NCBI GenBank assembly: GCA_040218735.1
Contig: JAVJQW010000049.1
Coordinates: 209,016 to 273,015 of the forward strand
From: Deltaproteobacteria bacterium
GTDB taxonomy: Bacteria > Myxococcota > Kuafuiibacteriia > Kuafuiibacteriales > Kuafuiibacteriaceae
DNA: 64,000 nt
Reading direction: 5' to 3'
How positions within the stretch are numbered: the first letter of the stretch is position 1; every line of letters begins with the position of its first letter. A program made the position numbers and the translations under genes. The notes beneath the pieces are model-generated. The model was not told the origin of the DNA and did no database searches. It was given only the letters and a program-made list of their open reading frames with translations. This document shows positions 19,601 to 49,387 of this stretch, piece by piece.

Positions 19601-20521
19601 TCAGACCGCGGTCGTGCCGCGCAGGTGCTTCTCCACGAACAGCTCACCGGCGCGGTAGGACGAACGCACCAGCGGCCCGGAGGCGACGTAGCCGAACCCC
19701 AACGCCTTCGCGACCTCGGCGTAGCGATCGAACGTCGCGGGCGGGACGTACTCCACCACCGGCAGGTGCTTCGAAGAGGGGCGGAGGTACTGGCCGAGCG
19801 TGACGATGTCGACGTCGTTCTCGCGGAGGTCCTCGAGCGTCTTCACGACCTCGTCCTCCGTCTCCCCGAGGCCGATCATGATCGAGCTCTTCGTCAGCAG
19901 GCCGGGGGCGTTGCGTTTGCTGAACGCGAGCACGTCCAGCGATTGCGCATAGGACGCACGCGGGTCGCGGACCCGCGAGGTCAGACGCTCCACACACTCC
20001 ACGTTGTGCGCGAGGACCGCGAGCGGCGACGCGAGCATCTCCCAGATCGCGGCTTCGTTGCCCTCGAAGTCGGGGATGAGCATCTCCAGCAGCACGTCGG
20101 GGCAACGCGCTCGGATCGCCTCCAGGCACCGGCGCAGGTGTCCGGCGCCGCCGTCGGGCAGCTCGTCGCGGTTCACGGAGGTGAGCACGACGTACGACAG
20201 GCCCATCGCGTCGACGGCCTCCGCGACGTGGTTCGGCTCTTCCTCGTCGAGCGGCGGAGGGATCCGCGCGGTGTTGATGGCGCAGAAGCGGCAGCCGCGG
20301 GTGCAGGTGTCACCCATCAGCATGAACGTGGCCGTGCCGCCGCCCCAGCACTCGGAGAGGTTCGGGCACTGCGCTTCCTCGCAGACCGTGGCGAGCTTCA
20401 GGTTGCGCGCGCTCTTCTTGAGCGCGGCGTAGGCCGGCCCGCCCGGGGGGCGAATCTTGAGCCACTCGGGCTTGCGGACGCGCTCGACGCCGTCCTGCAC
20501 GATGGGGAGGCTCCTCCGCAC
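19601..20521 (-). CDS. lipA: Lipoyl synthase
   Basis: KPEWLK, CEEAQCPNLSECW, CTRGCRFC, GQYLRPS, GPLVRSSY; GTG start near 20521. Confidence 0.96.
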   Translation of the reverse strand: MRRSLPIVQDGVERVRKPEWLKIRPPGGPAYAALKKSARNLKLATVCEEAQCPNLSECWGGGTATFMLMGDTCTRGCRFCAINTARIPPPLDEEEPNHVAEAVDAMGLSYVVLTSVNRDELPDGGAGHLRRCLEAIRARCPDVLLEMLIPDFEGNEAAIWEMLASPLAVLAHNVECVERLTSRVRDPRASYAQSLDVLAFSKRNAPGLLTKSSIMIGLGETEDEVVKTLEDLRENDVDIVTLGQYLRPSSKHLPVVEYVPPATFDRYAEVAKALGFGYVASGPLVRSSYRAGELFVEKHLRGTTAV

Positions 20522-20531
20522 GACCTCGGAG

Positions 20532-22838: not shown

Positions 22839-23006
22839 CGGCGAAGGCTCGCACGTGCGGCGCGTGATGTCGCGCCGACGGCCGATCGTGGGCGGTCGGG
22901 GCGGTCCCTGCACACCGCGAAGGGCAGGGTCGGGGCTCAGTGCACACTCGAGCGCTCCGGATCGACCGGCGCTCGTTGGAACGGCGCGTGCTCTAGACGA
23001 GCGTTC

Positions 23007-24380
23007 ATGGCGGAAGTCACCAGCCAACAGGCCATCACCACCACTCACATCTGGTTCTCGTCGGAACGACGCGAGTCGGACGACGGCACGACCTACACCG
23101 TGCAGGTCAAACACCAGGAGACGAAGACCGAGATCAAGATCGTCGTTCGCCGCGTGCCGGATCCGCCGAGCGAAGAGCAGGTCCAGGCTGCGGCGGATCG
23201 GCTCGCGGAGCAGGGCGTCGAGCCGGAGGCGATCGAACGGGTCCTCACGGAGATGATCGAGTCGGGCGCGCTCACCGGATCGAACGGTGACGCCGTCGCC
23301 GGGGACTGGATCGGGTTCACGGGGGGCGCCGTCGAGCCGAACGCCTCGAACCTGATCGCGGAGTCGGCCGCCAGCGCGCCGCCGCCGCCCGCGGGCGACC
23401 TCGACGGAACGACCGACGTCACCCAGGCCGCCGAAGCCCACTTCGACGACTGGGACGCCAACGCCGACGGCGTGCTCAGCGAGGACGAGCTCCTCGACGC
23501 GATCGCCGACCCCGCGTACACCGGCGAGGACGCGGCCGCGCTCGTCGCGCTCTACCGGCGCTACGACGAGGTCAAGAGCGCGAGCAACGACCAGGTCTTC
23601 GGCGAGACGGGCATCTCGGTGAACGACCTGTTGGTGGTCGAAGCGGCCGCCGCCAACGGCGACGACTTCGCGCGGCTCGGCGTCTACTTCGACGCCGCGA
23701 AGGATCGCGCCGACAACGCGTCGGCGGTGCTCTTCGGTGCGGGCGGGCCCGACCCGTACGCGGTTCAGCAGGGCGGGTTCGCGGACTGCACGTTCCACGC
23801 AGCGTTGGCTGCGCTCGCGCTCCAACGCCCCGACGACATCACCAACATGATCCAGGCAAACGCCGACGGCTCCTTCACGGTCACCTTCCCCGGTGAGGAT
23901 CCCGTGAACGTTCCGCCGCTGACCGACGGGCAGCTCGGCATCGGCGGGACGGCCGGCGCCAACGGGCAGTGGGTCACGGTGCTCGAGATCGCGTACCGCG
24001 AGGTCACCGGGAACCGTGAGGGAGCGCTGACGGGCGCGGGGATCCGGACGCTCACGGGCAACGGCACCATCCCGTGGCTCCCGGGGCTGGATTCGCCCGA
24101 CAGCATCCTCGCGAGCGTCGAAGCGTCGCTCGACGCGGACGGGATCGTCACGGTCAGCAACAACTTCGGCTCGGAGAACCTGCCGGAGTGGCACATCTAC
24201 AGCGTCCTCGACTACGACACCGCGAACGGCACCATCACCATCCGCAACCCGTGGGGTCGCGGTGAGCTCGAAGACGCCAGCGGCGCCCCGCTCGACGGGA
24301 CGGACGACGGCGTCTTCACGGTGACGGAGGAGGAGTTCCTGGAGCTGTTCGAGAGTGTGTCCGTCGAGAACGTCGACTGA
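23007..24380 (+). CDS. Calpain-like (C2 family) cysteine protease with EF-hand-like loop
   Basis: QGGFADC (Cys), WHIYSV (His), IRNPWG (Asn); DWDANADGVLSEDEL loop; C-terminal part of ORF 20457-24380. Confidence 0.83.
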   Translation: MAEVTSQQAITTTHIWFSSERRESDDGTTYTVQVKHQETKTEIKIVVRRVPDPPSEEQVQAAADRLAEQGVEPEAIERVLTEMIESGALTGSNGDAVAGDWIGFTGGAVEPNASNLIAESAASAPPPPAGDLDGTTDVTQAAEAHFDDWDANADGVLSEDELLDAIADPAYTGEDAAALVALYRRYDEVKSASNDQVFGETGISVNDLLVVEAAAANGDDFARLGVYFDAAKDRADNASAVLFGAGGPDPYAVQQGGFADCTFHAALAALALQRPDDITNMIQANADGSFTVTFPGEDPVNVPPLTDGQLGIGGTAGANGQWVTVLEIAYREVTGNREGALTGAGIRTLTGNGTIPWLPGLDSPDSILASVEASLDADGIVTVSNNFGSENLPEWHIYSVLDYDTANGTITIRNPWGRGELEDASGAPLDGTDDGVFTVTEEEFLELFESVSVENVD

Positions 24381-24389
24381 GGCGGAGGA

Positions 24390-24417
24390 GCTTGGCGCCG
24401 GGAGAGCGGCGCCAAGC
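24390..24417. terminator. Hairpin between convergent genes
   Basis: GCTTGGCGCCG-GGAGAG-CGGCGCCAAGC, 11-bp perfect stem; no U-tract. Confidence 0.55.
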
Positions 24418-24421
24418 CGGG

Positions 24422-26353
<1,932 letters not shown>

Positions 26354-26455: not shown

Positions 26456-29400
26456 TCAACTCACGTTCCGGCGGCGCCGACGGAGGCCGATCAGCAGGGC
26501 CAGCCCGAAGGCGGCGAGCGCCGACCGGGGGGTCTCGGAGGGCCCGGGGCGTTTCGCCACGGAACACCCACACCCGCCGTCCTCCTCGGCCTGCGTGACC
26601 GGCGTCCGGGGCGGCGGGACGATCGTGAACGACGACCCCACCACCGGCGCCCCGACGGTCGAGACGTCCCCGGTCGCCATACCCGTCGCGCGCAGGTCGT
26701 CGTTGCTCTCCAGGGCGAGCCGTAGCGTCCCGCCGGTGGCCGCGTCGGCGGCGATCTCCACCTCCGCGACCAGCGTGACGCTCGTGTCGGAGGGGATGTT
26801 CACGGCCAGGGACGGCAGCACGACGCGGCCGTCGTCGCCGTCGACGGGGGCGTTGGCGAGGATCATGTCCGTCTCGGAGGCCTCGCCGTCTTCGTCGCCG
26901 TCTACGTAGAGGCGGACCATGGCGATGGCAGAGGCGTCGTCGGCCGTACCGGAGGTGGTCAGGACCAGCTGATCCAAGGTCACGGTCTCGCCGCGCGTGA
27001 AGATCTCGAGCTGAAGCGCGGTGACGCGCTCCTCGGCGCGAACCCCACGTCCGGCGGGGGACAACACGCCGATTCGGACGTTCAGGGCCCCGACGAGGGA
27101 CACCCGGGCCCCCTCCACCGGCGCGCCGGTGGCGGCGATGGCGCCCGACAGCGCACCGAATGCGGACACGTCGGCGTCGCTCTCGAGGCTGAAGGTGACC
27201 TCCTCGCCGGCCTGACCGATCCCGGACAGATCGATCGCCACCAAGAAGTGCGCCGTGGTGTTCCGGGTGACGCGCTCCGCGATCGGGCCAAACGTCGCCT
27301 TGCCGTCGTCGCCCGCTACGCGCGCGACCGGCGCGACCTCCACGTCGCCGGGATCGATCCGCCCGTCGGCGTTGGCGTCGAGGAAGAGGTGGACGTCGTC
27401 GATGCCCGTGGTGTCGTCGAGCGATCCCGAGGCCGAGACCGACAGGCGCGACAGCGTCACGTCCTCGTTGAACGCCGACGCCGCGAGCTGCAGCACCGGG
27501 ACGAGCTCCGCGTTGGCCGCGACGATCTGATCCATCGGCGCCGCCGGGCCCGCCGCGATCTGGAGCGAGCCGCCGACCGTGAGCGTAGGTCCGAGGATCG
27601 GCGCGCCGACCGGGGAGGTCAGCCCCACGCTGTCACCCTCCGCGAGGACGTCGACGTTCGCGGCGATCGACACCGCGATCGACTCGTCGACGGTCGCGAC
27701 CCCGTCGAGGTCCAGCACCACCAGGAGGCGACGCGGCGAGGCGGGATCCACGACCTCGTCGAGGCCCGCGATGACGGTGCGCCGGCTGTTCTCCGGGAAC
27801 GTGACGCGCTCGGCGATGCGGCGGTCGGTGCCGGAGACGAGGCCGTCGTCGTCGTCGTCCGAGATCAGCGTGACCGCACCGACCGAGGCGGAGGGTGACA
27901 TCGAGCCTTGCGTGGTGAGCGTGAGGCTGCGCAGGCGGAACGTCTCCCAGGTCGCCGAGACCGCGAGGTCGAGCGCGACCAAGCCGGCGTCGTCGTTCTG
28001 CACGGTCTGGTTCATCGGCGTGGAGGCCGCGCCGATGTTGAGGTGCCCCGCGACGGTCATCGTGTTGCTCACGACCGGTGCGCCGGTGACGAGCGGGTTG
28101 CCGAACGCGGAGGTCGCCGCGACATCGCTGTCGTTCGCGATGCCGACCGTGAACGTGGTGCCGGGCGTCGCGCCCGCCGCGATGTTCACCGTCGCGATCA
28201 AGAACTGCGCCTCCGTGGTGGGGACGGGGAGGGCGAGCCCGGCGAACGGAACCAGCCCGTTCGCGTCCGGAGCGGTGCCGGACGCGAGCAGCACGTCGGT
28301 GCGGTCGAGGACGCCGTCCTGGTTCACGTCGCGGAACAGATCGATCTGCGCGACGACGTCCGACGCTGCACCCGCCGAGACGCCGGTGGTCAGCGTAAGG
28401 CCCTGCAGCGTGAGCGGCTGCACCGTGGCGCCGACGCGGATCTGCAGCACCGCCGCGCGCACCGTGCCCTCCGCGACGAAGAGCCCCGGCGGGGACTGCG
28501 CGCCGCGCGAGACGACCATCGCGCCGTCCTCCTGAATGGAGAAGGAGGCGGAGTCGATCGGCGCGCCGGTCGGCGTGACGGGGCCGGAGACCGCGCAGGC
28601 GACGTCGAGGTCGAGGTTGTCCTCCAGGCGGACCGAGAAGGTCTCGAGGTTGGAGGCCGATCCGGAGAGGTCGTAGACGACGAGCCACCGCTGCGAGGCG
28701 TTGGTGCCGAGCATCCGGGCGAGGTTCGTGAAGGTCACGACGCCGTCGTCGTTCGGGAACGTCGCGGCCGCGGAGATGTCGACGTCGTTGAAGTCGACGA
28801 GGCCGTTTTCGTTGAGGTCGTGGACGAGGCGCACGCCGGCGACGTCGGCGCTGTCGTCGATGCTCCCGACGCCGCGAAGGACGAGGCCATTCACGGTGCA
28901 AGCCTCGTTGACGGCGCGCAAGTTGAGTTGCAGCACCGCCGCATTCTGCTGTGACTGGTTCACGGCGCCGCCGAGGCTGCTCTGGGCGCCGAGCGCGACC
29001 TCGAACCCGCCGCCCGCGGTGAGCAGCGCGCCGGTGAGGGGCACGCCGGTGACGCTGACCGCGCCGCTCGCGCTCGTGATCGCGACGTCCTGCGCGGGGT
29101 CGACCGAGAGCGTGAACGTCTCGCCGCCGACGGGCGACGCGGTCATCGCGACGCGCGCGAGCAGATGCACCGCGGGGCCGACCTGGATGGCCTGCGTGAG
29201 GGCGAAGGTCACGGTGCCGTCGTTTGCGTTGAACGTGCCGGAGCCGAGCTGCGGCTCCCCCGCGCCGACCAGGCCGTTGCCGTCGCCGTCGAGGTAGAGG
29301 TCGACAGCGGCGATCCCGGTTGCGTCGTTGCCGGTGCCGCTCGCGTTCAGCGTGAGCGAAGTGATCGTGACCGGCTCGGTGTCCGCGACGAGGCGGAGCT

Positions 29401-32400
29401 GCATGGCGCCGATGCCGACCTCGTTCGGCCGCACTACGCGCGCGATCGGGGAGGCGACGCCCAGACCGACCTCCAGCGTGCCGCCCACCGTGAGGGGGTT
29501 GGCGGAGATCGGGAGGCCCGCGGCGTCGGTGATGTTCCGCCCCGCAAAGCCGGTCGCGGTGACGTAGGAGGCGTCCGGCATGTTGATGCGCAGCGTCGTC
29601 CCGCCCTCCGCGCTGCCCGCGAAGTCGACGACGAACAAGACGTTGCGCGTCGTGCCGGCGGGGAGGCTCAACGACAGGCCCGAGAACGTGACGACGCCGT
29701 CGTCCCCCGAGAAGGTGGACGGCGTGGACAGCGCGGTGTCGCCGGTGGTGAGCGCGCCGTCGCCGTCGTTGTCGAGGTACAGCGTCACGCCGGTGATGTC
29801 GGACTGGTCGTCGACGCTCCCCGCGGCGACGAACGACAGGCCCGTGACCGTGAACGCCTCGCCGACGCCGGTCAGCGCGACCTGCAGCACCGGCACGCCG
29901 CCCGCGGTGCGCGGGACCGTGGTCGAGGCCATCGATTGCGCGCCGCGCGCGACCATGAGCTGACCGAGCACGGTCTTCGTGCCGCCCGCCACCGGTGCGC
30001 CGCTCGTCCGCGGCACCATCCCGCTCGGGGCCATCGCGGTGAACGCGGTGTCGTTGACGATCGACAGCCCGAACGTGTTGCCCGCGACGGCGGTCCCCGC
30101 GAAGTCATAGGCGACGATCCACGACTCGTTCGCGCCGGCCGGGAGTGTCCGGCCCGGGAAGGTGAACGTGACGGTGCCGTCGTTCTGCGTGAACGACTGC
30201 GGCGTGCCGAGCGCGACGTCGCCCACCGTCTCGAGGACGCCGTTGTTGTTGGTGTCGATCCACAGCGTCGCGTTCGCGACGTCCGTGAGCTCGTTGCCGT
30301 TTCCGTTCGCGGTGAACGTCACGGAGGTGACGGTGACCGGCTCCAACACCGCGGTGAGGCGCGCCTGCATCATCACCACGTTGGCCGCGCTCGGCGTGAC
30401 GGAGCCGCCGGCGGGGTTCGCGGGCCCCGCGGTGATCGTGAGCGCGCCGCCGATCGCGTGGTCGCTGCCCGCGACGGGGAGGCCGCTCGCGGTGGTCGCG
30501 CCGGAGAGGGACCCGGTCGCCGTGAAGTCGGCGGCCGAAGCGATCGACGCGCGGAACGTCTGGCCGGGCGTGGACAGCAGCGACAGGTCGTAGACGAACA
30601 ACCAGCGCTCGTTGGCGCCCGCGCTCACCGTGACCGCGGGGGTGAAGTTGAAGATCGCGACGCCGTCGTCCGCGGCGAAGCTGCTGGTGCCGAGGAGGGT
30701 GTCGGTGCCGTCGACCACGCCGAACGGCGCGGTGTCACGGAGCAAGCGAACTTGCGCGACGCCCGCGTCGTCGAGCATCGATCCGGCGGCCGACAGACGG
30801 AGGCTCGACACGGTGAAGGTCTCGCCCTGCGCCGCGACCGCGACCTGGAGCACCGAGACGTCCGTGGAGCCGGGCTGGCGGTTCGTCGCGGGCGGGTTCT
30901 CCGGGCCGGTCGTGATCGAGAGACCGCCGAGGGTGGTGAGGGTGTTGCCCTGGATCGGGAACATGCCCATCGCCGTGATGGGCGCGCCCGAGGCGCCGCC
31001 CTGTGCGCCGACGTCGCCGCTCGCGTTCAGGCGGATCGCGAACGTCTCGCCGCCGGTCGGCGCGGCGGAGAAGTCGTAGGTCACGAGGTACGTGCGCGTC
31101 GCGGCGGCGGGGACGGACTCGCCGCCGGTGCTGAACGTGACGATGCCGTCGTTGGTCGCGAAGGTCTGCGGGAGGCCGACCGCGACGTCGCCGCCGTCCA
31201 CCGTGCCGTTGGCGTTCACGTCGCGGTACAGGCGCACGCGTGCGACGTGCGTGGTTTCGTTGCCGCTGCCGCTCGCCGTGAAGGTGAGGGTGTCGAGGTC
31301 CACCGCCTCGGCCTGCGCCGAGAACTGCACCTGGAGCATCGGGACGTTCGTGGCGTTGGGCTGCGCGGTCCCCGCGGGGTTGCTCGCCGCGCCGAGCGCC
31401 GCGGTGAGCGCGCCGCCGACGGTGCCGTCGTTGCCGATGACCGGGGCGCCGGTGAGCGCGCGCTGGCCGGTGGGGGGGACGGCGCCGGACGCGATGCCGG
31501 TCGCGACGATGTCGCCGGGGCTCGCGAAGATGGTGCGGAAGGTCGCGCCGCCGTTCGCGGTGCCGGCGAGATCGTAGACCACGATGAAGTCGCGCCACGT
31601 GCTCGCGGGGATGTTCTGCGCCGCGAAGGTGAACGTGATGCGGCCGTCGTTCTGCGTGAAGGTCTGCGCGCCGCCGAGCTGCGTGTCGGTGGCCTGGTAG
31701 ACGCCGTCGCCGTTGTTGTCGCGGTACAGGCGCGCGGCGTTGATCTGCGTGACGTCGTTCAGCGTGCCGCCCGCCGTGAACGACAGGCTCGTGAGGTCGA
31801 AGGTCTCGTTCACCGCGGTGACGCGGAGCTGGAGCGTCGCGAGGTTCGAAGCACCCGCGGGGATCACGGACGGCGCCATGCTGTTCGGGCCGAGGCCCAC
31901 GGCGAGGCGCCCGGCGATCGTGACGGTGTCGCCGAGGAACCCACCGGTGCCGTTCGTCGTGCCGGACACGTACGGGGCGCCGACGTTCGAGCCGACGTCC
32001 GAGGCCTGCTGGATGCGCGCGGTGAACGTCTCGCCGCCGACCGGGGACGTGTTGAAGTCGTAGACGACGAGCCACTCCTCGGTGGTGCCGACGGTGAGCG
32101 TTCGGTTCGGCGAGAGGATCACCGCGCCGTCGTTGCCGTTGTAGGTGCCGGTCGCGATCACCGGCTCACCGGCGTCGGCGACGCCGTCCTGGTCCTGGTC
32201 GACGACGAGCCGCACCGTCTGCACGTCGAGGAAGTCGTCGCCGGTGCCGCTCGCGCGCACGGTGAGCGGGCCGACGGTGGTGTTCGTGGTGCCGCCGCGG
32301 ATGCGGAACGCGAGCATCGTAACGTTGGACGCGCCCGCGACCTGGAAGGTGTCGCCCGGGTTGCTGTCCGCGAGCTTGAGGAAGAACACCGGCTGCACGT

Positions 32401-33091
32401 TCACGCGCATGCCGACGTTGCCGATCGTCCAGATCGAGCTTCGCGTCGCGAAGTTGTCGTTGGTGAAGATGCTCGTCCCGACGGGGCTCAGCGCGGACTC
32501 GTCGACCGCGAAGTTCATGAACGCGTCCCAGTAGATGTACTTGATCGCGTAGAAGACCCGGCCCGGTGCGTCGAAGATCGTGCCGGCGGGGAGCGTCCAC
32601 TGGTCCGGGAACAGCGTCCACGGCGGCGACGTGTACGTGGAGCCGGACCCGCTGAAGTTCACGTCGGGGAGCACGGAGTAGCGCTGGTTCTGGACCGGCA
32701 CCGTGTACGTGATGGCACCCTGTGCGAAGACGGGGTTGGCGAGGTCGGGGGTGAGGCCGCCGGCGTCGACGGTGAGGTTCGCGGGGGCGATGACGCGCGC
32801 GTCCCAGTCGGGGGACGCGGTGCAAGTCGTGTTGCAAGGCTGCGTCTGACAGCAGAACTCGTCGACGTAGTACATCGTTGCGCTCGTCACCGCGAACGGG
32901 AACTCGTACGGCGGCGTGTACGCGACGCCGATCCAGTCGCCGTCTCCGGCGTTGGGCGCGGTGAGGGACCACATGCTGTCGAAGGTGCCGTCGTCGGCCT
33001 GGAGCGTGACGTTCTGGGCGACGGCGTTCGTAGCGGAGCCGAAGGTGAGGAGCGCGAGGAGGGGGATGTGAATTCGGTCCATGACAATCAC
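26456..33091 (-). CDS. Giant surface protein (2211 aa) with about 12 beta-rich repeats and MYXO-CTERM-like anchor
   Basis: Signal peptide; about 160-aa repeats with L-x-x-D-x-D/N-x-D/N-G loops; C-terminus GGCGCSV..TM helix..RRRRR. Confidence 0.85.
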   Translation of the reverse strand: MIVMDRIHIPLLALLTFGSATNAVAQNVTLQADDGTFDSMWSLTAPNAGDGDWIGVAYTPPYEFPFAVTSATMYYVDEFCCQTQPCNTTCTASPDWDARVIAPANLTVDAGGLTPDLANPVFAQGAITYTVPVQNQRYSVLPDVNFSGSGSTYTSPPWTLFPDQWTLPAGTIFDAPGRVFYAIKYIYWDAFMNFAVDESALSPVGTSIFTNDNFATRSSIWTIGNVGMRVNVQPVFFLKLADSNPGDTFQVAGASNVTMLAFRIRGGTTNTTVGPLTVRASGTGDDFLDVQTVRLVVDQDQDGVADAGEPVIATGTYNGNDGAVILSPNRTLTVGTTEEWLVVYDFNTSPVGGETFTARIQQASDVGSNVGAPYVSGTTNGTGGFLGDTVTIAGRLAVGLGPNSMAPSVIPAGASNLATLQLRVTAVNETFDLTSLSFTAGGTLNDVTQINAARLYRDNNGDGVYQATDTQLGGAQTFTQNDGRITFTFAAQNIPASTWRDFIVVYDLAGTANGGATFRTIFASPGDIVATGIASGAVPPTGQRALTGAPVIGNDGTVGGALTAALGAASNPAGTAQPNATNVPMLQVQFSAQAEAVDLDTLTFTASGSGNETTHVARVRLYRDVNANGTVDGGDVAVGLPQTFATNDGIVTFSTGGESVPAAATRTYLVTYDFSAAPTGGETFAIRLNASGDVGAQGGASGAPITAMGMFPIQGNTLTTLGGLSITTGPENPPATNRQPGSTDVSVLQVAVAAQGETFTVSSLRLSAAGSMLDDAGVAQVRLLRDTAPFGVVDGTDTLLGTSSFAADDGVAIFNFTPAVTVSAGANERWLFVYDLSLLSTPGQTFRASIASAADFTATGSLSGATTASGLPVAGSDHAIGGALTITAGPANPAGGSVTPSAANVVMMQARLTAVLEPVTVTSVTFTANGNGNELTDVANATLWIDTNNNGVLETVGDVALGTPQSFTQNDGTVTFTFPGRTLPAGANESWIVAYDFAGTAVAGNTFGLSIVNDTAFTAMAPSGMVPRTSGAPVAGGTKTVLGQLMVARGAQSMASTTVPRTAGGVPVLQVALTGVGEAFTVTGLSFVAAGSVDDQSDITGVTLYLDNDGDGALTTGDTALSTPSTFSGDDGVVTFSGLSLSLPAGTTRNVLFVVDFAGSAEGGTTLRINMPDASYVTATGFAGRNITDAAGLPISANPLTVGGTLEVGLGVASPIARVVRPNEVGIGAMQLRLVADTEPVTITSLTLNASGTGNDATGIAAVDLYLDGDGNGLVGAGEPQLGSGTFNANDGTVTFALTQAIQVGPAVHLLARVAMTASPVGGETFTLSVDPAQDVAITSASGAVSVTGVPLTGALLTAGGGFEVALGAQSSLGGAVNQSQQNAAVLQLNLRAVNEACTVNGLVLRGVGSIDDSADVAGVRLVHDLNENGLVDFNDVDISAAATFPNDDGVVTFTNLARMLGTNASQRWLVVYDLSGSASNLETFSVRLEDNLDLDVACAVSGPVTPTGAPIDSASFSIQEDGAMVVSRGAQSPPGLFVAEGTVRAAVLQIRVGATVQPLTLQGLTLTTGVSAGAASDVVAQIDLFRDVNQDGVLDRTDVLLASGTAPDANGLVPFAGLALPVPTTEAQFLIATVNIAAGATPGTTFTVGIANDSDVAATSAFGNPLVTGAPVVSNTMTVAGHLNIGAASTPMNQTVQNDDAGLVALDLAVSATWETFRLRSLTLTTQGSMSPSASVGAVTLISDDDDDGLVSGTDRRIAERVTFPENSRRTVIAGLDEVVDPASPRRLLVVLDLDGVATVDESIAVSIAANVDVLAEGDSVGLTSPVGAPILGPTLTVGGSLQIAAGPAAPMDQIVAANAELVPVLQLAASAFNEDVTLSRLSVSASGSLDDTTGIDDVHLFLDANADGRIDPGDVEVAPVARVAGDDGKATFGPIAERVTRNTTAHFLVAIDLSGIGQAGEEVTFSLESDADVSAFGALSGAIAATGAPVEGARVSLVGALNVRIGVLSPAGRGVRAEERVTALQLEIFTRGETVTLDQLVLTTSGTADDASAIAMVRLYVDGDEDGEASETDMILANAPVDGDDGRVVLPSLAVNIPSDTSVTLVAEVEIAADAATGGTLRLALESNDDLRATGMATGDVSTVGAPVVGSSFTIVPPPRTPVTQAEEDGGCGCSVAKRPGPSETPRSALAAFGLALLIGLRRRRRNVS

Positions 33092-34701
33092 CGGATCGTG
33101 TCGAGGCGGGTGAGGAGGCCCTCGGGCCAGGAGAGGGTGGCGACGTCCCAGGTCTCGGCCGACACCGGGATCGTCGCGGGGTACACGGCGATCTGGACGT
33201 CGCCGAGGAAGACCTCCAGCGTCGCGCCGGTCGGGCCTTCGGGCGAGGCCGCGACGACGTTCACCTGCAGCGTGTAGACGCCGCCCGCGGGGGCGGTGAC
33301 CGCGACGGACTCTTCGGCGCCGTTCGCGGTGAACGCGGGATCACCGCCGGGTCCCGGCGGGGCCCAGTCGGGCGTGGGGTTGTCGAAGAAGCAGTCGCCG
33401 AGCGAGCCGAGCGCGGCGCCGGGGGAGACGACGTGCAGGTCGAGGTCGGTGCCGGGGCGATCCCAGGTCAGCACGACGCGGACGTCCTCGCCCGCCTCCG
33501 CGGTGACCTCGGCGCGTGCGTCGTTCGTGGAGGCGAGGCCCTGGGCGTCGCGGACCTCGAGGCCTGCGACGTAGCGACCCGGGCGATCGACGACGAACGC
33601 GGTGACTTCGGCGGTGGGATCCTCGAACGCGGCGCGGCTGCCTTCGGGGCGCGAGACGAAGCGCCAGCGGTAGGTGATGGCGTCGCCCTCGGGATCGTTC
33701 GAGCCCACGCCGCTCACGTCGATCCGCGTGCCGGGGAGGATCGGGGGCGTGGGCGCGGGATCGAGGTTCACGACCGCGACGGGCGGGAGGTTGTCGGGTC
33801 GTCCGAGGATCGGGACGACGACCGCGGGGCGCTCGAGGTCGTTCGACTCGATGACGAGCTGCGCGCTTCCGCGGTCGGTGACGCCCGGGGCGTAGTCGAT
33901 GTCGATCACCGCGGTCCCGCCCGGGAGGAGCGGATCGATCCGCGCGTCGGAGACGACGGCGAAGCCGCGTCGCTCGAGCGGGGGCGAGGTGTCGACGTCC
34001 TCGCGGCACGCCATGTAGCCGGTGGTGTCGGTGGTACAGACGTACCCCGCGGGGCAGTCCGAGGCGCCGGTGCAGGCCTCGGCGCAGATCAGCCCGGAGA
34101 GCGATGGGGTGCAGCGGCCCTCCTGGCAGTCGCCGTCGCGGAAGCAGGCCTCGCCGGCGAAGCCTCCGGTCCGCAACGAGATGCGATCCACGACGAGGGT
34201 CGCGTCGCCCGCGCTCTCGATCCGGACCGATCCCGACACCCGTCCGCCGCTCTCGATGTTGCCGAGCTCGAGCGTCGCGGGGGCGACGGCGATGCGGGCG
34301 AAGGTGCGCTCGCTGGAGAGGGGGACGCCGACGTACGGGTTGTCGAGCGCGTCGGTCTCGATCTCGAGGAGGCCCGCGTCGGGATCGGCGTCGTTGGGGG
34401 TGTAGGTGACGCGCACGGTCGCGGAAGTACCCGCGGCGATCTCGGTCGGGAGCTCCCCGAGCGTGAAGACGGGCGCGGAGCCGTCCGAGAAAGCGATCCG
34501 ATCGACGCGGAGCGTCGCGGACGGGGCGTCGTTGGTGAGGACGAGGTCGACGCTGCGCGACTGGCCCGTCGGGACCTTACCGAACGCGATCTGTTCGGGC
34601 GCGACGGTCATCGTCGCGCGCGCGCTGAGGACCTCCGGCTCGCAGCTCGTGAGGGCCCAGGCCGCGAGGAGAGTAGGTCCGAGAACCCGTGCGTCGTACA
34701 C
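33088..34701 (-). CDS. Lipoprotein with Ig-like (choice-of-anchor D/ASH-like) domains, Cys-rich insert and PKD-like domain
   Basis: Lipobox-like ALTSC; IAFGKVPTG..LEIETD; SNDPEGDAITYRWRF; LTWDRPGTDLDLHV; start uncertain (ORF track gives 34842). Confidence 0.7.
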   Translation of the reverse strand: MYDARVLGPTLLAAWALTSCEPEVLSARATMTVAPEQIAFGKVPTGQSRSVDLVLTNDAPSATLRVDRIAFSDGSAPVFTLGELPTEIAAGTSATVRVTYTPNDADPDAGLLEIETDALDNPYVGVPLSSERTFARIAVAPATLELGNIESGGRVSGSVRIESAGDATLVVDRISLRTGGFAGEACFRDGDCQEGRCTPSLSGLICAEACTGASDCPAGYVCTTDTTGYMACREDVDTSPPLERRGFAVVSDARIDPLLPGGTAVIDIDYAPGVTDRGSAQLVIESNDLERPAVVVPILGRPDNLPPVAVVNLDPAPTPPILPGTRIDVSGVGSNDPEGDAITYRWRFVSRPEGSRAAFEDPTAEVTAFVVDRPGRYVAGLEVRDAQGLASTNDARAEVTAEAGEDVRVVLTWDRPGTDLDLHVVSPGAALGSLGDCFFDNPTPDWAPPGPGGDPAFTANGAEESVAVTAPAGGVYTLQVNVVAASPEGPTGATLEVFLGDVQIAVYPATIPVSAETWDVATLSWPEGLLTRLDTIR

Positions 34702-34927: not shown

Positions 34928-36859
34928 ATGAAGACCGGTGCTGCATTCGTAGGTTTCCTCTTTTCCGCAGGAGTCGGATTTGCCGTCGGCTGGGCCGTCG
35001 GCTCCGGTTCGGGCGGCCCGTCCGGTGGTGGCGGCGGTACGATGGCGCCCGGCGCCAAGGCCGCAGACGCCTCGGCCCTCCCGGTCGGTGACTCCTACGT
35101 CAAGGGTCCCAACGACGCCCTCGTGACGCTGATCGAGTTCTCGGACTTCGAGTGCCCGTTCTGCTCGCGCGTGAACCCCACGATCAAGCAGATCCAGGAC
35201 ACGTACGGCAAAGACGTCCGGATCGTGTTCAAGCACAACCCCCTGCCGTTCCATAAGAACGCGCCGCTCGCGTCCGAGTACGCGCTCGCCGCGGGTGAGC
35301 AGGGCAAGTTCTGGGAGATGCACGACAAGCTGTTCGCCAACCAAAAGGCGCTGCTCGAGCCGCAGCTCAAGGAGTACGCGGCGCAGCTCGGCCTCGACCA
35401 GGCCAAGATCGACGCGTTCATCGCGAGCGGGAAGGGCAAGAAGGCCATCGCGGATGACCAGGCTCTCGCGTCGAAGGTCGGCGCGCGCGGTACGCCGAAC
35501 TTCTTCGTCAACGGTGCGCAGGTCACGGGCGCGCAGCCCTTCGACAACTTCAAGAAGGTGATCGACGAGCAGATCGCGATCGCGAAGAAGAAGGTCGCCG
35601 CCGGCACGCCGCGCGACAAGGTCTACGCGGCCGTCCTCGCGGAGAACCCGCCGAAACCCGCGCCGCCGCCGCAGCGCCCGCAGGCCCCGCCGGCGACCCG
35701 TCAGAAGGTCTCGCTCTCGGACGCGACGCCCCAAAAGGGCGGCAAGATGCCGCTCGTCACGATCGTGGAGTTCTCGGACTTCGAGTGCCCCTTCTGCTCT
35801 CGGGTGAACCCGACGCTCGCGCAGGTGATGAAGGAGTACGGCGACAAGGTGCAGATTCGCTTCCGTCACCAGCCGCTGCCGTTCCACAAGCGCGCGATGC
35901 CCGCCGCCAAGGCGTCCCTCGCGGCGCACAAGCAGGGCAAGTTCTGGGAGATGCACGACAAGCTGTTCGCCAACCAGAAGGCGCTCCAGGACGCGGACCT
36001 CGAGAAGTACGCCAAGGAGATCGGCCTCAACGTCACGCGCTTCAAGGCGGACATGAACAGCGACGCGATCACCAAGCAGGTCGCGGCCGACCAGGCCGAC
36101 GCCGGCAAGTGGGGCGCGCGCGGTACGCCGACGCTCTTCGTCAACGGCGTCCCGGTGCGCGGCGCGCAGCCGTTCGCGGCGTTCAAGACGGTCATCGACA
36201 AGGAGATCGAGCTCGCCAACAAGCTCCTCAAGGAGGGTGTGAAGAAGGCGGACCTGCACGCGGAGATCATCAAGCGTGAGGCCGGCAAGGAGGTCGCGGG
36301 CGCCGCGCCCGGCGCCGCGAAGCCGGCCGCCCCGGCGAAGCCGCAGGACGTGAAGCTCGGCCGCGCGCCGATCGTCGGCAACAAGAACGCGCCGGTGAAG
36401 GTCGTCCTCTGGTCGGACTTCGAGTGCCCCTTCTGTGGCCGCGTGAACCCCTCGATCGAGCAGATCAAGAAGGAGTACGGCAACAAGGTGGTCGTCGCGT
36501 TCAAGCACTTCCCGCTGCCGTTCCACAAGAACGCGACCCCGGCGGCCGTGGCGTCCCTCGCGGCGCACCGTCAGGGCAAGTTCTGGGAGATGCACGACAA
36601 GCTCTTCGAGAACCAGCGTGCGCTGCAGCGCACCGACCTCGAGCGCTACGCCGAGGAGCTCGGGCTGGACATGGCCAAGTTCAAGAAGGACATGGACGAT
36701 CCGGAGCTCGAGGCCTGGGTGAAGGCCGATATGGCCGAGGGCTCCAAGGTGGGTGTGAACGGCACGCCGGCCACGTACATCAACGGCCGCAAGGTCTCCG
36801 GCGCCCAGCCGTTCCCGGCCTTCAAGGCCATCATCGACGAAGAGCTCAAGAAGGGCTGA
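34928..36859 (+). CDS. DsbA-family protein with three thioredoxin-fold domains
   Basis: Three SDFECPFC motifs, each followed by QGKFWEMHD and a GTP cis-Pro loop; N-terminal TM segment. Confidence 0.92.
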   Translation: MKTGAAFVGFLFSAGVGFAVGWAVGSGSGGPSGGGGGTMAPGAKAADASALPVGDSYVKGPNDALVTLIEFSDFECPFCSRVNPTIKQIQDTYGKDVRIVFKHNPLPFHKNAPLASEYALAAGEQGKFWEMHDKLFANQKALLEPQLKEYAAQLGLDQAKIDAFIASGKGKKAIADDQALASKVGARGTPNFFVNGAQVTGAQPFDNFKKVIDEQIAIAKKKVAAGTPRDKVYAAVLAENPPKPAPPPQRPQAPPATRQKVSLSDATPQKGGKMPLVTIVEFSDFECPFCSRVNPTLAQVMKEYGDKVQIRFRHQPLPFHKRAMPAAKASLAAHKQGKFWEMHDKLFANQKALQDADLEKYAKEIGLNVTRFKADMNSDAITKQVAADQADAGKWGARGTPTLFVNGVPVRGAQPFAAFKTVIDKEIELANKLLKEGVKKADLHAEIIKREAGKEVAGAAPGAAKPAAPAKPQDVKLGRAPIVGNKNAPVKVVLWSDFECPFCGRVNPSIEQIKKEYGNKVVVAFKHFPLPFHKNATPAAVASLAAHRQGKFWEMHDKLFENQRALQRTDLERYAEELGLDMAKFKKDMDDPELEAWVKADMAEGSKVGVNGTPATYINGRKVSGAQPFPAFKAIIDEELKKG

Positions 36860-37461: not shown

Positions 37462-41192
<3,731 letters not shown>

Positions 41193-41196
<4 letters not shown>

Positions 41197-42146
41197 GTTC
41201 GGGTCCTCTTGCGGGTGGCGTAGAGCGTGATCACGTCGAAGTGCGGAGCACGTCTCTCGGTGTGGCTCACCGCGAGGTGCTCGACTTCGAAATCGGCTGC
41301 GGCGAGGAGAGTTTCGAGCGCTTCGGGCTCGAATCCCAGATTTTGGTGATCGTAGGCCGCGACGGCGCTGGTGTGCGCGTGCGCCGCGAGGGTGACGGCG
41401 ACGAGGCGGGCCCCGTCGCGGGCGACGCGCGCGCACTCGGCGAGCACACGCGCGGGTTCGGTGGCGTAGGTGAGCGCGTTGAGCGCGAGGACTTGGTCGA
41501 AGCTCGCGTCTTCGAAGGGGAGGGCGTGCATGTCGCCCTTCACGAAGCGGACGTGGTCGAAGCGCGCGAGGCGCCGCGTGCCGGCCTGGGTGACCTCTTC
41601 GCTCATGTCGAGGCAGGTCAGCGATCGTGCGCGCGGCGCGACGAGCTCGGCGAGGGCGCCGTCGCCCGAGGCGAGATCGAGGACGTCGCCGAGCTGCGCG
41701 AGCCCGATGAACGCCCGCGCGGTCGACTGCCAGGTGCGGCCGGGGGAGTAGTGCCGCTCCATGTGGCCGGCGACGGTGTCCGCCCACGTGCCGCCCCGCT
41801 CGCGCGCCGCGAGGGCCTCCTCGAGGCGCCGCTGGTCGACGGCGAGCAGCGGGTCGTCGAGCCGATCGCGAATCGAGCGCCAGAACTGGCGCGTGTCCTC
41901 GGCCATCCTCTCTTCGCTCGCGGCGTACAGCGTGACCGACTTGCTCTTGCGCGCCTGCACGAGGCCGGCGTCCTTCAGGCGGCCCAGGTGCGTCGAGACC
42001 CGCGACTGCGTGAGCCCCGTGATCCGCACGAGCTCGGCGACGGTCAGCGGCGTGGCCGTCAGCAGGTGCAGCAGCCGCACGCGCGAAGTGTCCGAGAGCG
42101 CGCGGCAGAGCGCGTTGGTGGCTTCGAGCGTGGGCATCGGACGCAT
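41193..42146 (-). CDS. ArsR-HTH/SAM-methyltransferase-domain regulator (SahR/SamR-like)
   Basis: N-terminal ArsR HTH ([15 protein letters not shown]), [25 protein letters not shown]; coupled to metH. Confidence 0.85.
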
Positions 42147-42172
42147 AATCTGCTTATCCGGATAAGCAGATT
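42147..42172. promoter_or_regulatory. Perfect 26-bp palindrome; probable operator of the SahR-like regulator
   Basis: AATCTGCTTATCCGGATAAGCAGATT is its own reverse complement, is AT-rich and abuts the start codon. Confidence 0.75.
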
Positions 42173-42220
42173 CGAAGAGTAGGCCACCGACGGCGCCCTG
42201 CGTCAAGGGGGGGGCGGATC

Positions 42221-43953
42221 TCAGCGTTGGAGCGCGCGGCGCACGGCGGCGACGAGGTCGTCCGGCGCGCCGGAGAGGACGGTGGGGCCGTCGCCGTCGC
42301 GGTCGAAGATCCACAGCACGGGGAGCTGCCGCGCGGACGCGAGGTGCTCACGCGCGACGGGGTGGTCGAAGCTCGGGACCTCCACCCGCTTCACGAGCAG
42401 GTCGGCGTTCGAATCCGCGAGGGCTCGCAGCCGTCGGTCGAGGTCGTGGCAGGGCGCGCACCACTCCGCCCAGAAGTCGACGACGGTGACACGCGCGCGG
42501 ACGGCGACGGTCGCGCGGTCGAAGGTGGCGCCGCCGATTGTGAGGTCGCAGACCCCACGGGAGCCGCAGGCCACCGGCCGGGGCTCCCGCCCGGTCCGGG
42601 TCCCGGTTCCGGTCCGGGTCCCGGAACTGGATCTGGGCACGGACTTCGAACCGGACGCGGACGCGGGCCGCGCATCGGGCTCGAGCTCGGCACCGGAACC
42701 GGGCACGGGCTTCGACCCGGACTCGGATGCGGACTCGGCCTCGGATGCGGACTCGGGCGCGGACTCGGCCTCGGATGCGGACTCGGATGCGGCCTCGGAT
42801 GCGGACTCGGCTGCGGACTCGGACGCGGCCGCGGATGCGGACTCGGCCTCGGATGCGGACTCGGCCTCGGACTCGGACTCGGACTCGGATGCGGACCCGG
42901 AGTCGGATGGGGCGCCGCGATGGGGAATCACATCCCCATGCTCATGCGCGTCCCCATGCTCATGCGCGTCCCCATGGTCATGGTCATGCCCGTGCTCGTC
43001 CGCCTCCGCGCCCCCGAAGGCCACCACCACCGCGGCGCCCACCGTGAAGCGCTCCGACACCTGCGGCCCGTTCACGTCGCGCCACATCGGGAGGCGTCCG
43101 TTCACGGCCACGGTCACCCGCTCGTGCACGCGCTGGCTCACGCCGGCGGCGAGCGCCACGATCGTGCCGCCCGAGCGCAGCACCGTGCCGACCTCCAGCT
43201 CCACGGCGCGGCCGCGCGTGGTGCCGTTGATGTCGAGGGACAGCGCCGTGTCGCCGAGGAGCACCAGGCCGCCGGCGCCGTAGCTGAAGCTGCTCGGGAG
43301 CTGCAGCGCGCCCGCCGTCGCGGTCAGCGGCGCGCGCAGGGCGACGTTGCCGCGCAGCGCGAAGCGTTTGTGGACGAACTGCGTCGCGAACAGCCCGGCG
43401 TCCGCCGAGAACGTGCCCGTCCCGACGGAGAGCTGGCTCGGCGCGACGCCGAGGACCCGCAGGGTCTCGGTTCGCCCCGTCGGCAGCCCGACGCCGAGCG
43501 CGAGCGTGACGCTCGGCGTGTACCCGCCGGGCCCCAGCAGCGCCGCGAAGTCGTACCGCCCCGACAGGCGCAGGTCCCCGAAGCCCGTCGAGCGCGCGGC
43601 CGGCGTTCGGTTCGCGCGATAGCGCACCATCCCCGCCGGGAGCTCGGCCTCGACCGACCAGCCCTCGCCGAAGAAGTGCCGCACGCCCAAGACCGCCACC
43701 GAGGACACGACGTTGGCGTTCGCCGGGTCGTCCACGCGAGACGAGCCGTCGAACGAGTCGGGCAGGGTGGAGTAGGCCCACCGCAACCCAACTTGCGTCA
43801 GATCCTCGGGCAGCGCCTTACGCGTGCCGAGCGCGAGATCGAATGCGGACCCCCCGACCGGGAGGTTGGGGTTCGTTCACGACGCTCACTGGCCGAACGC
43901 CACCGTGGACCACACGAGGAACCACGGCAGCGTCAGCCCGAGAAGGAGCCACC

Positions 43954-43957
<4 letters not shown>
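42221..43957 (-). CDS. Predicted UxxU selenoprotein: signal peptide + beta-barrel (transporter-like) + His-rich/low-complexity linker + thioredoxin
   Basis: TTG 43957 gives MRWLLLGLTLPWFLVWSTVAFG-Q-TGA-A-S-TGA-TNPNLP, in frame with ORF 42221-43786; barrel motifs TGFGDL and LGVGLPTG; HGHDHDHGDAHEH; DFWAEWCAPC. Confidence 0.75.
42716..42900. repeat. Intragenic 6/18-bp tandem repeats encoding an Ala/Ser/Glu linker
   Basis: Arrays of GCGGAC/TCGGAT/TCGGCC units; minus strand reads ASESESESEAESASEAES...; boundaries approximate. Confidence 0.8.
43849..43866 (-). promoter_or_regulatory. Putative bacterial SECIS element
   Basis: mRNA ACCUCCC-GGUC-GGGGGGU: 7-bp stem including one G-U pair, GGUC loop; stem begins after a 10-nt spacer 3' of the second UGA. 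Confidence 0.7.
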
Positions 43958-45314
<1,357 letters not shown>

Positions 45315-48347: not shown

Positions 48348-49004
48348 TCAATTCGACGGGCGGCGCCCGCGGAGCACGGCGGTGATCTCGGCGACGATCG
48401 AGGTCGCGATCTCCGCGGGGGACTTCGCGCCGATGTCGAGGCCGATCGGGCCGTGGATGCGCCCGATGGTCGCGGCGTCGAAGCCGCGCGCCTCGAACCG
48501 CTCCGTCCGACTCGCGTGCGTGCGCTTGCTCCCGAGCGCGCCGATGTAGAAGGCGTCGCTCTTCAGCGCGACGGCCAACGCCGGGTCGTCGATCTTCGGA
48601 TCGTGCGACAGCAACACCACCGCCGTCCGGTGGTCGGGCGCCAGCCGCTCCAGCGCCTCGTCTGGCCAGTCGTCGGTCCGCTCGACGTCCGCGAACCGCT
48701 CCGCGCGCAGGAAGGCGCCGCGCGGATCGATCACCGTCACCGCGTACCCCAGCTCCTTCGCCATCACGGTCAGGATCTGCGCGACGTGCACCGCGCCGAT
48801 GATCAACATCCGTAGCGGAGGGTTGAACGGGTGCACGAACGTCCCGTCCTCGACCGACGCCCGGTCGCTGTCCAACGCCGCCGACGCCGCCGCGTCCTCG
48901 CGCGCGGCGATACGCTCGGCGCCCGACTCCAGGTCCACGATCCGACACACCGCACGTTTGTCGGCGGCCGCGGCGAGCAGGGCATCCAGCGTCGAGCGTT
49001 TCAC
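48348..49004 (-). CDS. XdhC-family protein, C-terminal Rossmann part
   Basis: IIGAVHVAQ, SHDPKID, FYIGALGS, GPIGLDIGAKSPAEIA; GTG start at 49004. Confidence 0.87.
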   Translation of the reverse strand: MKRSTLDALLAAAADKRAVCRIVDLESGAERIAAREDAAASAALDSDRASVEDGTFVHPFNPPLRMLIIGAVHVAQILTVMAKELGYAVTVIDPRGAFLRAERFADVERTDDWPDEALERLAPDHRTAVVLLSHDPKIDDPALAVALKSDAFYIGALGSKRTHASRTERFEARGFDAATIGRIHGPIGLDIGAKSPAEIATSIVAEITAVLRGRRPSN

Positions 49005-49315
49005 GTCAGGGCCTCCACGTAGACCTCGATGGTCCCGCCGCACGCGAGGCCGACGTCCCACGCTTCCTCGTCGCTCACCCCGAACCGCAGCAGCTTCGGC
49101 GCCTTCGACGCCATGATCTGCGCCGCTTCGTCCACGACCCGCCCCTCCACACACCCCCCCGACACGGAGCCGACGAACAAAAGATCGTCGCGCACGATCA
49201 GGAGGCTCCCGGCGGGGCGGGGGGAGCTCCCCCAGGTGCGGACGACGGTGGCGATGGCGACCGCGTGTCCTGCGTCGTGCCATTCACGTGCGGTCTCGAG
49301 CAGCTCGGTGGACAT
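49001..49315 (-). CDS. XdhC/CoxI N-terminal domain protein
   Basis: ATVVRTWGSSPRPAG, GSVSGGCVEG, GLACGGTIEV. Confidence 0.88.
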   Translation of the reverse strand: MSTELLETAREWHDAGHAVAIATVVRTWGSSPRPAGSLLIVRDDLLFVGSVSGGCVEGRVVDEAAQIMASKAPKLLRFGVSDEEAWDVGLACGGTIEVYVEALT

Positions 49316-49387
49316 GCTCCGCGCAGGCTACCCAATTCACGCCACGACGTCTCGGCGGGTGTGCGCCCGGCGGGTTAACGTCCCGCC

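Follow-up and report, generated by a model that had tools for sequence, protein, structure and literature searches.

A candidate outer-membrane selenoprotein of Myxococcota with two in-frame UGA codons and a single SECIS-like hairpin

Two TGA triplets lie nine bases apart on the minus strand of contig JAVJQW010000049.1, which belongs to a Deltaproteobacteria bacterium of the Myxococcota, and they are closely followed by a hairpin that resembles a bacterial selenocysteine insertion sequence (SECIS) element. The locus raises the question of whether the two triplets are stop signals or sense codons and, in the latter case, whether one hairpin can serve both of them. We analyzed a stretch of 64,000 nucleotides (nt) of this contig (positions 209,016 to 273,015), hereafter called the window, and all coordinates given below are window positions. 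As judged from the translation, the homologs, and a structure model, the triplets are codons 24 and 27 of a real, so far unannotated gene (42221..43957, minus strand; 578 codons plus a TGA stop), recoded most likely as selenocysteine (Sec, U). That both are recoded through this one hairpin is, in our judgment, probable.

The 521-codon open reading frame (ORF) at 42221..43786 on the minus strand shares its frame with both TGAs and with an upstream TTG (43955..43957), which we take as the start codon; in the sequence TTGA, it shares bases with the TGA stop of the cystathionine beta-synthase gene lying upstream. With TGA translated as U, the N-terminus reads MRWLLLGLTLPWFLVWSTVAFGQ-U-A-S-U-TNPNLPVGGSAFDL..., i.e., a signal-peptide-like segment (43889..43957, minus strand) is followed by a UxxU motif. 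The segment was recognized by inspection and has an A-x-G/A-type cleavage motif just before Q-U. The first of the two codons, UGA1, is codon 24 (43886..43888), and the second, UGA2, is codon 27 (43877..43879). After the signal peptide and Q-U-A-S-U, the gene product continues with an outer-membrane barrel of 12 strands and, beyond a linker rich in His, ends in a thioredoxin domain. TGA is the usual stop codon in the window, where it terminates 24 of the 29 Pfam-supported ORFs, and the window DNA has a G+C content of 69%.

Relatives were sought at the DNA level by scanning contigs with a thioredoxin-motif pattern, and because of this pattern unrelated thioredoxins make up the bulk of the 80 loci kept. 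The only full-length relatives among them are five genes (L001 to L005) from metagenome-assembled genomes (MAGs) of Polyangiaceae, Polyangia, and Myxococcales, which are 37-41% identical. In all five, one frame runs through a signal peptide ending in AHA, AFA, ARA, or TAA, one further residue, TGA-NNN-NNN-TGA, and the sequence x-(N/S)-P-N-L-P-(V/G)-G-G-S. An initial annotation of the locus had named conservation of the hairpin in TGA-containing homologs as a check of its proposal, and both TGAs and the hairpin are indeed found at the same place in all six genes seen as DNA (window and L001 to L005), with coding conservation on both sides of the TGAs. As all six sequences, which come from independent MAGs or genomes, show the pattern, sequencing error is ruled out. 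The codon after UGA2 is ACG, GTC, and ATC in the window, L003, and L004, none of which is a start codon, and a downstream start can therefore not explain the conserved peptide.

Protein databases contain this family mostly without its N-terminus. A word-based protein search gave seven matches, none of which had a signal peptide and two of which begin at xNPNLPVGGS, and an exhaustive HMMER search with residues 1-322 against 1.84 billion representatives returned 144 hits. In 71 of the 74 database relatives with a local phmmer E value <= 1e-20, the position of residue 28 is preceded by fewer than 12 residues, which leaves no room for a signal peptide, and at least 13 database relatives start exactly at the codon after UGA2, as xNPNLPVGGS. 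Starts right after UGA2 are the footprint of gene callers at an in-frame TGA. The source names of these relatives are only "hypothetical protein" or "thiol-disulfide isomerase/thioredoxin". In a tree of the rows with at least 200 aligned columns, all six genes with confirmed TGAs fall, together with 11 of the 13 rows beginning after UGA2, into a clade of 68 rows that has 97% support in the Shimodaira-Hasegawa-like approximate likelihood ratio test (SH-aLRT). As the tree left out the Cys-type rows P0078, P0083, P0095, P0109, P0124, and P0139, and as its label "truncated_noSP" is a catch-all that includes distant rows with signal peptides, it says little on the direction of the Sec/Cys change. 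Inside this otherwise signal-peptide-less Sec-type clade, a pair of proteins carries signal peptides, namely P0046 (with CAVC) and P0072 (without any Cys); the pair may reflect a Sec-to-Cys change that was followed by loss of the motif.

The columns of the two Sec codons are occupied by Cys in other members of the family. In 11 more distant proteins, a signal peptide is followed by Q-CxxC-x-(N/S)-P aligned to UxxU (e.g., QCAACSNPNL and QCATCGNPA), and the DNA of one Cys-type gene, L008, has TGC..TGC at these positions. Still more distant members have CxC or CC directly after the signal peptide, so that a pair of Cys residues at the N-terminus seems to be characteristic of the family. A further protein, P0085 (149 residues, from a contig of 1253 bases), reads AYGA-W-SA-W-GNSSLPVGG at the UxxU positions, and its W-S-A-W probably represents TGA called as Trp by its gene caller. 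The G+C content of this record seems lower, and the UxxU form may therefore also exist outside Polyangia.

In the structure model of the gene product, residues 53-315 (43013..43801) form an outer-membrane beta-barrel of the COG4313/FapF channel type, with a block-mean predicted local distance difference test (pLDDT) score of 79-96, mostly above 90, and with the 12 strands of such channels. In a Foldseek search, the ten top-ranked chains, among them the COG4313 channel 4rl8 and FapF (5o65, 5o67), matched the barrel with target-normalized template modeling (TM) scores of 0.70-0.83 and E values of 5.7e-15 to 9.4e-13; 4rl8 gave an E value of 2.6e-13 and a TM score of 0.83, 5o67 an E value of 5.7e-15, and the FapF TM scores were 0.70-0.79. 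Unlike these channels, to which identity is only 15-17%, the window protein has a Sec/Cys pair at its N-terminus and, past the barrel, a thioredoxin domain that is fused to it through the His-rich linker. The Pfam family PF13557 gave no hit for the window protein at E <= 0.1; the relative P0003 matched it at E 4.2e-7, and precomputed hits exist for P0003 and P0007.

The His-rich linker (EHGHDHDHGDAHEHGDAHEHGD...; 42902..43000) is followed by a disordered low-complexity stretch rich in Ser, Glu, and Ala that extends to about 42557. At least one His is present in the linker in 54 of 65 rows of the Sec-type clade, with a median of 5, and none in the Cys-type fusions seen. The Ser/Glu/Ala-rich part (SESESEAESASEAESAS...; 42557-42900, minus strand, about 100 residues) is found in the window protein alone and attracts spurious NCBIfam hits to serine-rich adhesins. 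The thioredoxin domain (residues 468-578; 42224..42556; PF00085, E 3.9e-7; pLDDT 94-97) carries WCAPC at 42463-42449.

With the reading frame established, the second part of the question concerns the hairpin (43849..43866, minus strand), which has a 5' arm ACCUCCC (43866-43860), a loop GGUC (43859-43856), and a 3' arm GGGGGGU (43855-43849), encodes part of N-L-P-V-G-G-S, and has a predicted energy of -11.1 kcal/mol. The stem is a perfect helix of 7 bp including one U-G pair and has no bulge. The string reported initially, for which no strand had been given, reads on the minus strand (43888..43849) as TGA GCG TCG TGA ACGAACCCCA ACCTCCC GGTC GGGGGGT, and the apical loop lies at the reported distances of 17 nt from UGA2 and 26 nt from UGA1; the stem begins 10 and 19 nt after these codons. 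A lower stem (43840..43875) had also been considered possible, with CGAA (43875-43872) pairing with UUCG (43843-43840). This pairing does occur in the minimum-free-energy fold of 61 nt (-25 kcal/mol) but is not conserved across the six genes, and the lower helix of the consensus (alifold) structure uses other columns and is broken in one or two sequences at five of its seven pairs.

According to the Fig. 2 legend of PMC13188914, the bacterial SECIS model has a stem length of 4-16 bp, a loop length of 3-9 nt, a spacing of 16-37 nt, a G within the first two loop positions, and an energy <= -7.5 kcal/mol. All six genes lie within these bounds. Their hairpins are part of the coding sequence and directly follow an in-frame UGA; the stem has 7 bp, the loop 4 nt (5 nt in L004), the loop sequence is GGUC in five genes and CGGGU in L004, with a G in the required place each time, and the simple-hairpin energies range from -8.8 to -11.1 kcal/mol. 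The spacing from UGA2 to the loop is 16-17 nt, that from UGA1 25-26 nt, so that every parameter of the model agrees for both codons in all six genes. The proposal that one hairpin is placed to serve two UGAs thus gains comparative support. No comparable hairpin is present in the Cys-type gene L008 (TGC CCC GGC TGC CAG AAC CCG AAC CTG CCG ATG...), where the best candidate has -3.2 kcal/mol. The best explanation is that the hairpin is the bacterial SECIS element of this gene, located within the coding sequence and the only one present.

The hairpin taken alone is unremarkable, and it is the comparison of genes that lifts it above chance. Several features suggest selection at the level of the RNA. 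In the two Gly columns of the 3' arm, none of the 12 codons of the six genes is GGC, as compared to 199 of 360 among all Gly codons, and GGC occurs at least once in every one of the 18 remaining invariant Gly columns. The peptide L-P-V-G-G is kept in the Sec-type N-termini seen and occurs in none of the 11 Cys-type proteins, which is in keeping with an additional constraint from the RNA on the Sec forms. In L003 and L005, one stem pair has changed from C-G to U-A by two synonymous changes, the only one of the seven pairs with a double change. Covariation among homologs, another check named at the outset, is weak: 95.2% of the cells are paired and one double change is present, but with the six sequences, 100 of 500 shuffles scored as high.

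The apical loop of the Escherichia coli fdhF SECIS element reads GGUC, and the initial annotation had drawn on this element for comparison. In fdhF, 11 nt separate the UGA from the upper stem-loop, G23 and U24 are located in the apical loop, and the upper stem has a bulged U (PMC8659212). The likeness extends to an intracoding hairpin just after a UGA, to G and U in the apical loop, and to the spacer of 10 nt after UGA2 versus 11 nt (PMC8659212); it does not extend to the bulged U, which has no counterpart in the perfect stem with its U-G pair, nor to the presence of a further UGA 9 nt upstream. With a stem lacking a bulge and spacers of 10 nt (UGA2) and 19 nt (UGA1), the hairpin is not of the fdhF type.

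Other explanations of the locus have to be weighed against double recoding through one hairpin. If there were no recoding, the TGAs would be the stops of a small upstream ORF or the sign of a dead gene, with the barrel protein starting later, as annotated. Gene callers indeed place the starts of the relatives downstream, the next in-frame start in the window is the TTG at 43786, and the window scans revealed no Sec machinery. However, a signal peptide is required for an outer-membrane barrel, and all six genes have theirs only upstream of the TGAs. In addition, the 34 codons from UGA2 to the TTG at 43786 are conserved as protein, with mostly synonymous differences, and the Cys homologs run uninterrupted through the same columns, which together make the absence of recoding highly improbable. 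Alternatively, the hairpin could serve UGA2 only, with UGA1 being passed by a different fold, by near-cognate read-through, or by an unseen element. The position of the upper stem-loop in fdhF, 11 nt from its UGA, would favor such a division, as the UGA1 spacer of 19 nt is unlike fdhF (PMC8659212), but the distance of 26 nt from UGA1 to the loop is within the 16-37 nt of the consensus model (PMC13188914). An alternative fold for UGA1, as had been suggested initially, did not emerge: no second conserved hairpin lies in the range of UGA1, where all hairpins are the same hairpin, its sub-registers, or others no better than -3.9 kcal/mol. As the lower helix is also poorly conserved and the homologs carry Cys, not Trp, in the UGA1 column, we consider a hairpin for UGA2 alone unlikely.

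The identity of the inserted residue is a separate matter. The same hairpin and SelB could be in use while one or both UGAs are read as Cys by a SelC*-type tRNA (tRNA-ReC), which would result in CxxC, CxxU, or UxxC. Genes for tRNA-ReC-like molecules are frequent in genomes with UXXU-type hydrogenases (about 56%, versus about 2.3% of other Sec-type genomes), with the warning that Cys may in this case be inserted at either UGA (PMC13582414), and the Cys homologs described above show that Cys works at both positions. On the other hand, no such tRNA was found in the window or the five related loci, which are small parts of their genomes, and TGC or TGT would be cheaper for encoding Cys, yet both TGAs persist in six genes at 37-41% identity. 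Reading as Cys has, in our estimate, only a small chance of being correct, and Sec at both positions remains the preferred assignment.

A number of observations nevertheless weigh against double recoding through this hairpin. The 61-nt fold has a z-score of -1.31, with 20 of 200 dinucleotide shuffles folding at least as well, and an equally good or better SECIS-like simple hairpin follows 59 of the 1351 TGA triplets of the window (4.4%; both strands, any frame). When the 22 codons after UGA2 were recoded synonymously, 122 to 733 of 3000 trials per sequence (4-24%) matched the hairpin in quality, indicating that the peptide L-P-V-G-G itself favors a hairpin. The hairpin of L004 fits only with the register slid by one base, five of the seven stem pairs are invariant, and covariation is not significant with six sequences. 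Rfam gave no SECIS family, neither in a scan of the whole window at the gathering threshold nor in a permissive scan of 43750-44000; the sole match was Proteo-phage-1 with an E value of 9.7, which is at chance level. The Cys-type comparison at the DNA level has a single control, as a tblastn search with 10 Cys-type barrels against the 80 loci matched only L008, and the N-terminal arm of the structure model has a pLDDT below 50, so that the model says nothing structural on the Sec pair. Regarding the machinery, ARAGORN detected only a tRNA-Leu and no tRNA-Sec in the 64-kb window, a tRNA scan of the five related loci gave no tRNA-Sec either, and no SelA, SelB, or SelD was found among the 39 window ORFs that were chosen by G+C content at third codon positions (GC3) and scanned against Pfam. 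A crude scan of the window yielded no other read-through candidate; its two hits were both boundaries between adjacent same-frame genes. Finally, we found no experimental demonstration in bacteria of two rounds of SelB action on one hairpin within three codons.

If double recoding takes place, translation could proceed as follows. SelB with Sec-tRNA(Sec) would dock on the apical loop and decode UGA1 while the stem, which starts 19 nt downstream, would be clear of the ribosome by analogy with E. coli. The ribosome would then advance by three codons with the hairpin unmelted, and a second SelB complex would bind the same hairpin and decode UGA2, with the stem 10 nt away compared to 11 nt in E. 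coli fdhF. Termination at UGA1 or UGA2 would release only a signal-peptide fragment of 23 or 26 residues, and as failure at either codon leaves such a short fragment, the output should depend steeply on the selenium supply. After cleavage of the signal peptide, the mature protein would begin with X-Sec-x-x-Sec.

In an even-stranded barrel, both termini are expected to be in the periplasm. The thioredoxin domain, if periplasmic, could exchange electrons with the N-terminal Sec pair, and our guess is that its CxxC cycles an N-terminal diselenide or the selenolates in a role tied to the handling of metals or metalloids. Some hints come from the neighborhoods of relatives. In L008 (3487-8316), the start of the Cys-type barrel gene (AWA-CPGC-QNPNLP) is overlapped, as GTGA, by a gene for a lipoprotein that combines a thioredoxin domain with two Cys-rich motifs (C-x-H-x-x-P-x-x-x-C-x-x-C-x-P), and next to these two comes a convergent gene for a CusA/CzcA heavy-metal resistance-nodulation-division (RND) pump (TIGR00914, 1199 bits). 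In L003, TolC-like and RND genes are 2-5 kb away. Together with the His-rich linker, the pump and the thioredoxin lipoprotein of L008 and the TolC/RND genes of L003 point to metal or metalloid handling. Tentatively, and with more doubt than confidence, the window gene could be regarded as the founding case of a widespread, hitherto unannotated family of extracytoplasmic double-Sec proteins, each an outer-membrane channel, in Polyangia and related Myxococcota. In such a family, the mature X-Sec-x-x-Sec would be serviced by the tethered thioredoxin and the His-rich linker and act as a diselenide/selenolate gate or as a metal or metalloid trap, while the use of one SECIS element twice within three codons would make synthesis roughly second-order in selenium.

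Bacterial SelL reportedly uses a single SECIS element, as described by Shchedrina and coworkers in 2007. For two UGAs nine bases apart, the use of one element was raised only as a possibility in 2026, namely that a single downstream SECIS may decode both UGAs in UXXU-type Group 4 [NiFeSe] hydrogenases (PMC13582414). Further UxxU families listed in a table of PMC13188914 are peroxiredoxin (Prx)-like proteins, the metal-binding protein NF041115, and an FmdB-family protein; UxxU motifs also appear in PMC9312934, and Prx-like UxxU sequences of Global Ocean Sampling (GOS) origin in PMC2398784. The window gene shares with the UxxU selenoproteins (SelL/Prx-like, NF041115, FmdB, and Group 4 [NiFeSe]) two Sec codons with two codons between them, one hairpin after the second, and CxxC in the Cys homologs. 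It differs from them in having no sequence relationship and in the location of UxxU, which is in the N-terminal arm of the barrel, directly after the signal-peptide cleavage site, and outside a thioredoxin-fold, heavy-metal-associated (HMA), or hydrogenase active site. Nor is it of the SelL/Prx-like type: its UxxU occupies residues 24-27, ahead of the barrel, and Cys is retained in the WCAPC of the thioredoxin domain.

Outer-membrane selenoproteins as such have precedents in the TonB-dependent receptor of the FCYXU type (NF049945) and the MtrB/PioB-family barrel GSU2204 (NF041027) (PMC13188914). These differ by having one Sec rather than two and by their other barrels, and neither model matched the window protein in the NCBIfam scan. 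No NCBIfam selenoprotein model matched at all; the only such hit, to TsoB, came from the thioredoxin domain and, with E 0.0014, fell well short of the cut-off. The text of the 2026 review PMC13188914, the supplements of which may list more families, contains no mention of PF13557, Myxococcota, or Polyangia, and its outer-membrane barrel entry is a different family. A full-text literature search found no paper joining selenoproteins or selenocysteine with Myxococcota. One SECIS element for UxxU is accordingly an arrangement already proposed elsewhere, whereas the protein family appears to be new as a selenoprotein and would add a two-Sec outer-membrane selenoprotein to the Myxococcota. For sequence databases this matters because dozens of public clusters are N-terminally truncated "thioredoxin" or "hypothetical" proteins, the true start and export signal of which are restored once the Sec codons are recognized. 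The gene also offers a compact test case, in which the two UGAs and the hairpin are all less than 120 nt away from the start codon and natural Cys-type relatives can serve as controls.

The gene is flanked by functions of sulfur and selenium amino-acid metabolism. Upstream lies the cystathionine beta-synthase-like gene with its PLP-dependent and CBS domains (43954..45300, minus strand; Pfam PALP, E 9e-73, and CBS, E 2.5e-18), and downstream on the same strand follow a fusion of an ArsR-type helix-turn-helix domain and an S-adenosylmethionine-dependent methyltransferase (41196-42347) and the B12-dependent methionine synthase MetH (37465-41100). This context is not common to the five related loci. 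A conserved operon of the selenoprotein gene with the cystathionine beta-synthase, ArsR-methyltransferase, and MetH genes was therefore rejected, as the five Sec-type loci share no neighbors with the window or with each other.

Elsewhere in the window, an XdhC-like gene at 48351-49327 (minus strand) appears to be split over two overlapping frames, with XdhC_CoxI in the ORF 49004-49327 and the XdhC_C Rossmann domain in the ORF 48351-49283, which could be due to a frameshift, an assembly error, or a pseudogene. A secreted-looking protein of 643 residues with three DsbA-like thioredoxin domains is encoded at 34928-36856 (plus strand). The ORF of 2294 codons at 26459-33340 (minus strand) has a strongly coding-type GC3 of 0.94 and no Pfam match at E <= 1e-5. 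At 20433-24461, two opposed ORFs of about 1300 codons both have a coding-like GC3, and only the one on the plus strand has a weak hit, to a calpain-type peptidase.

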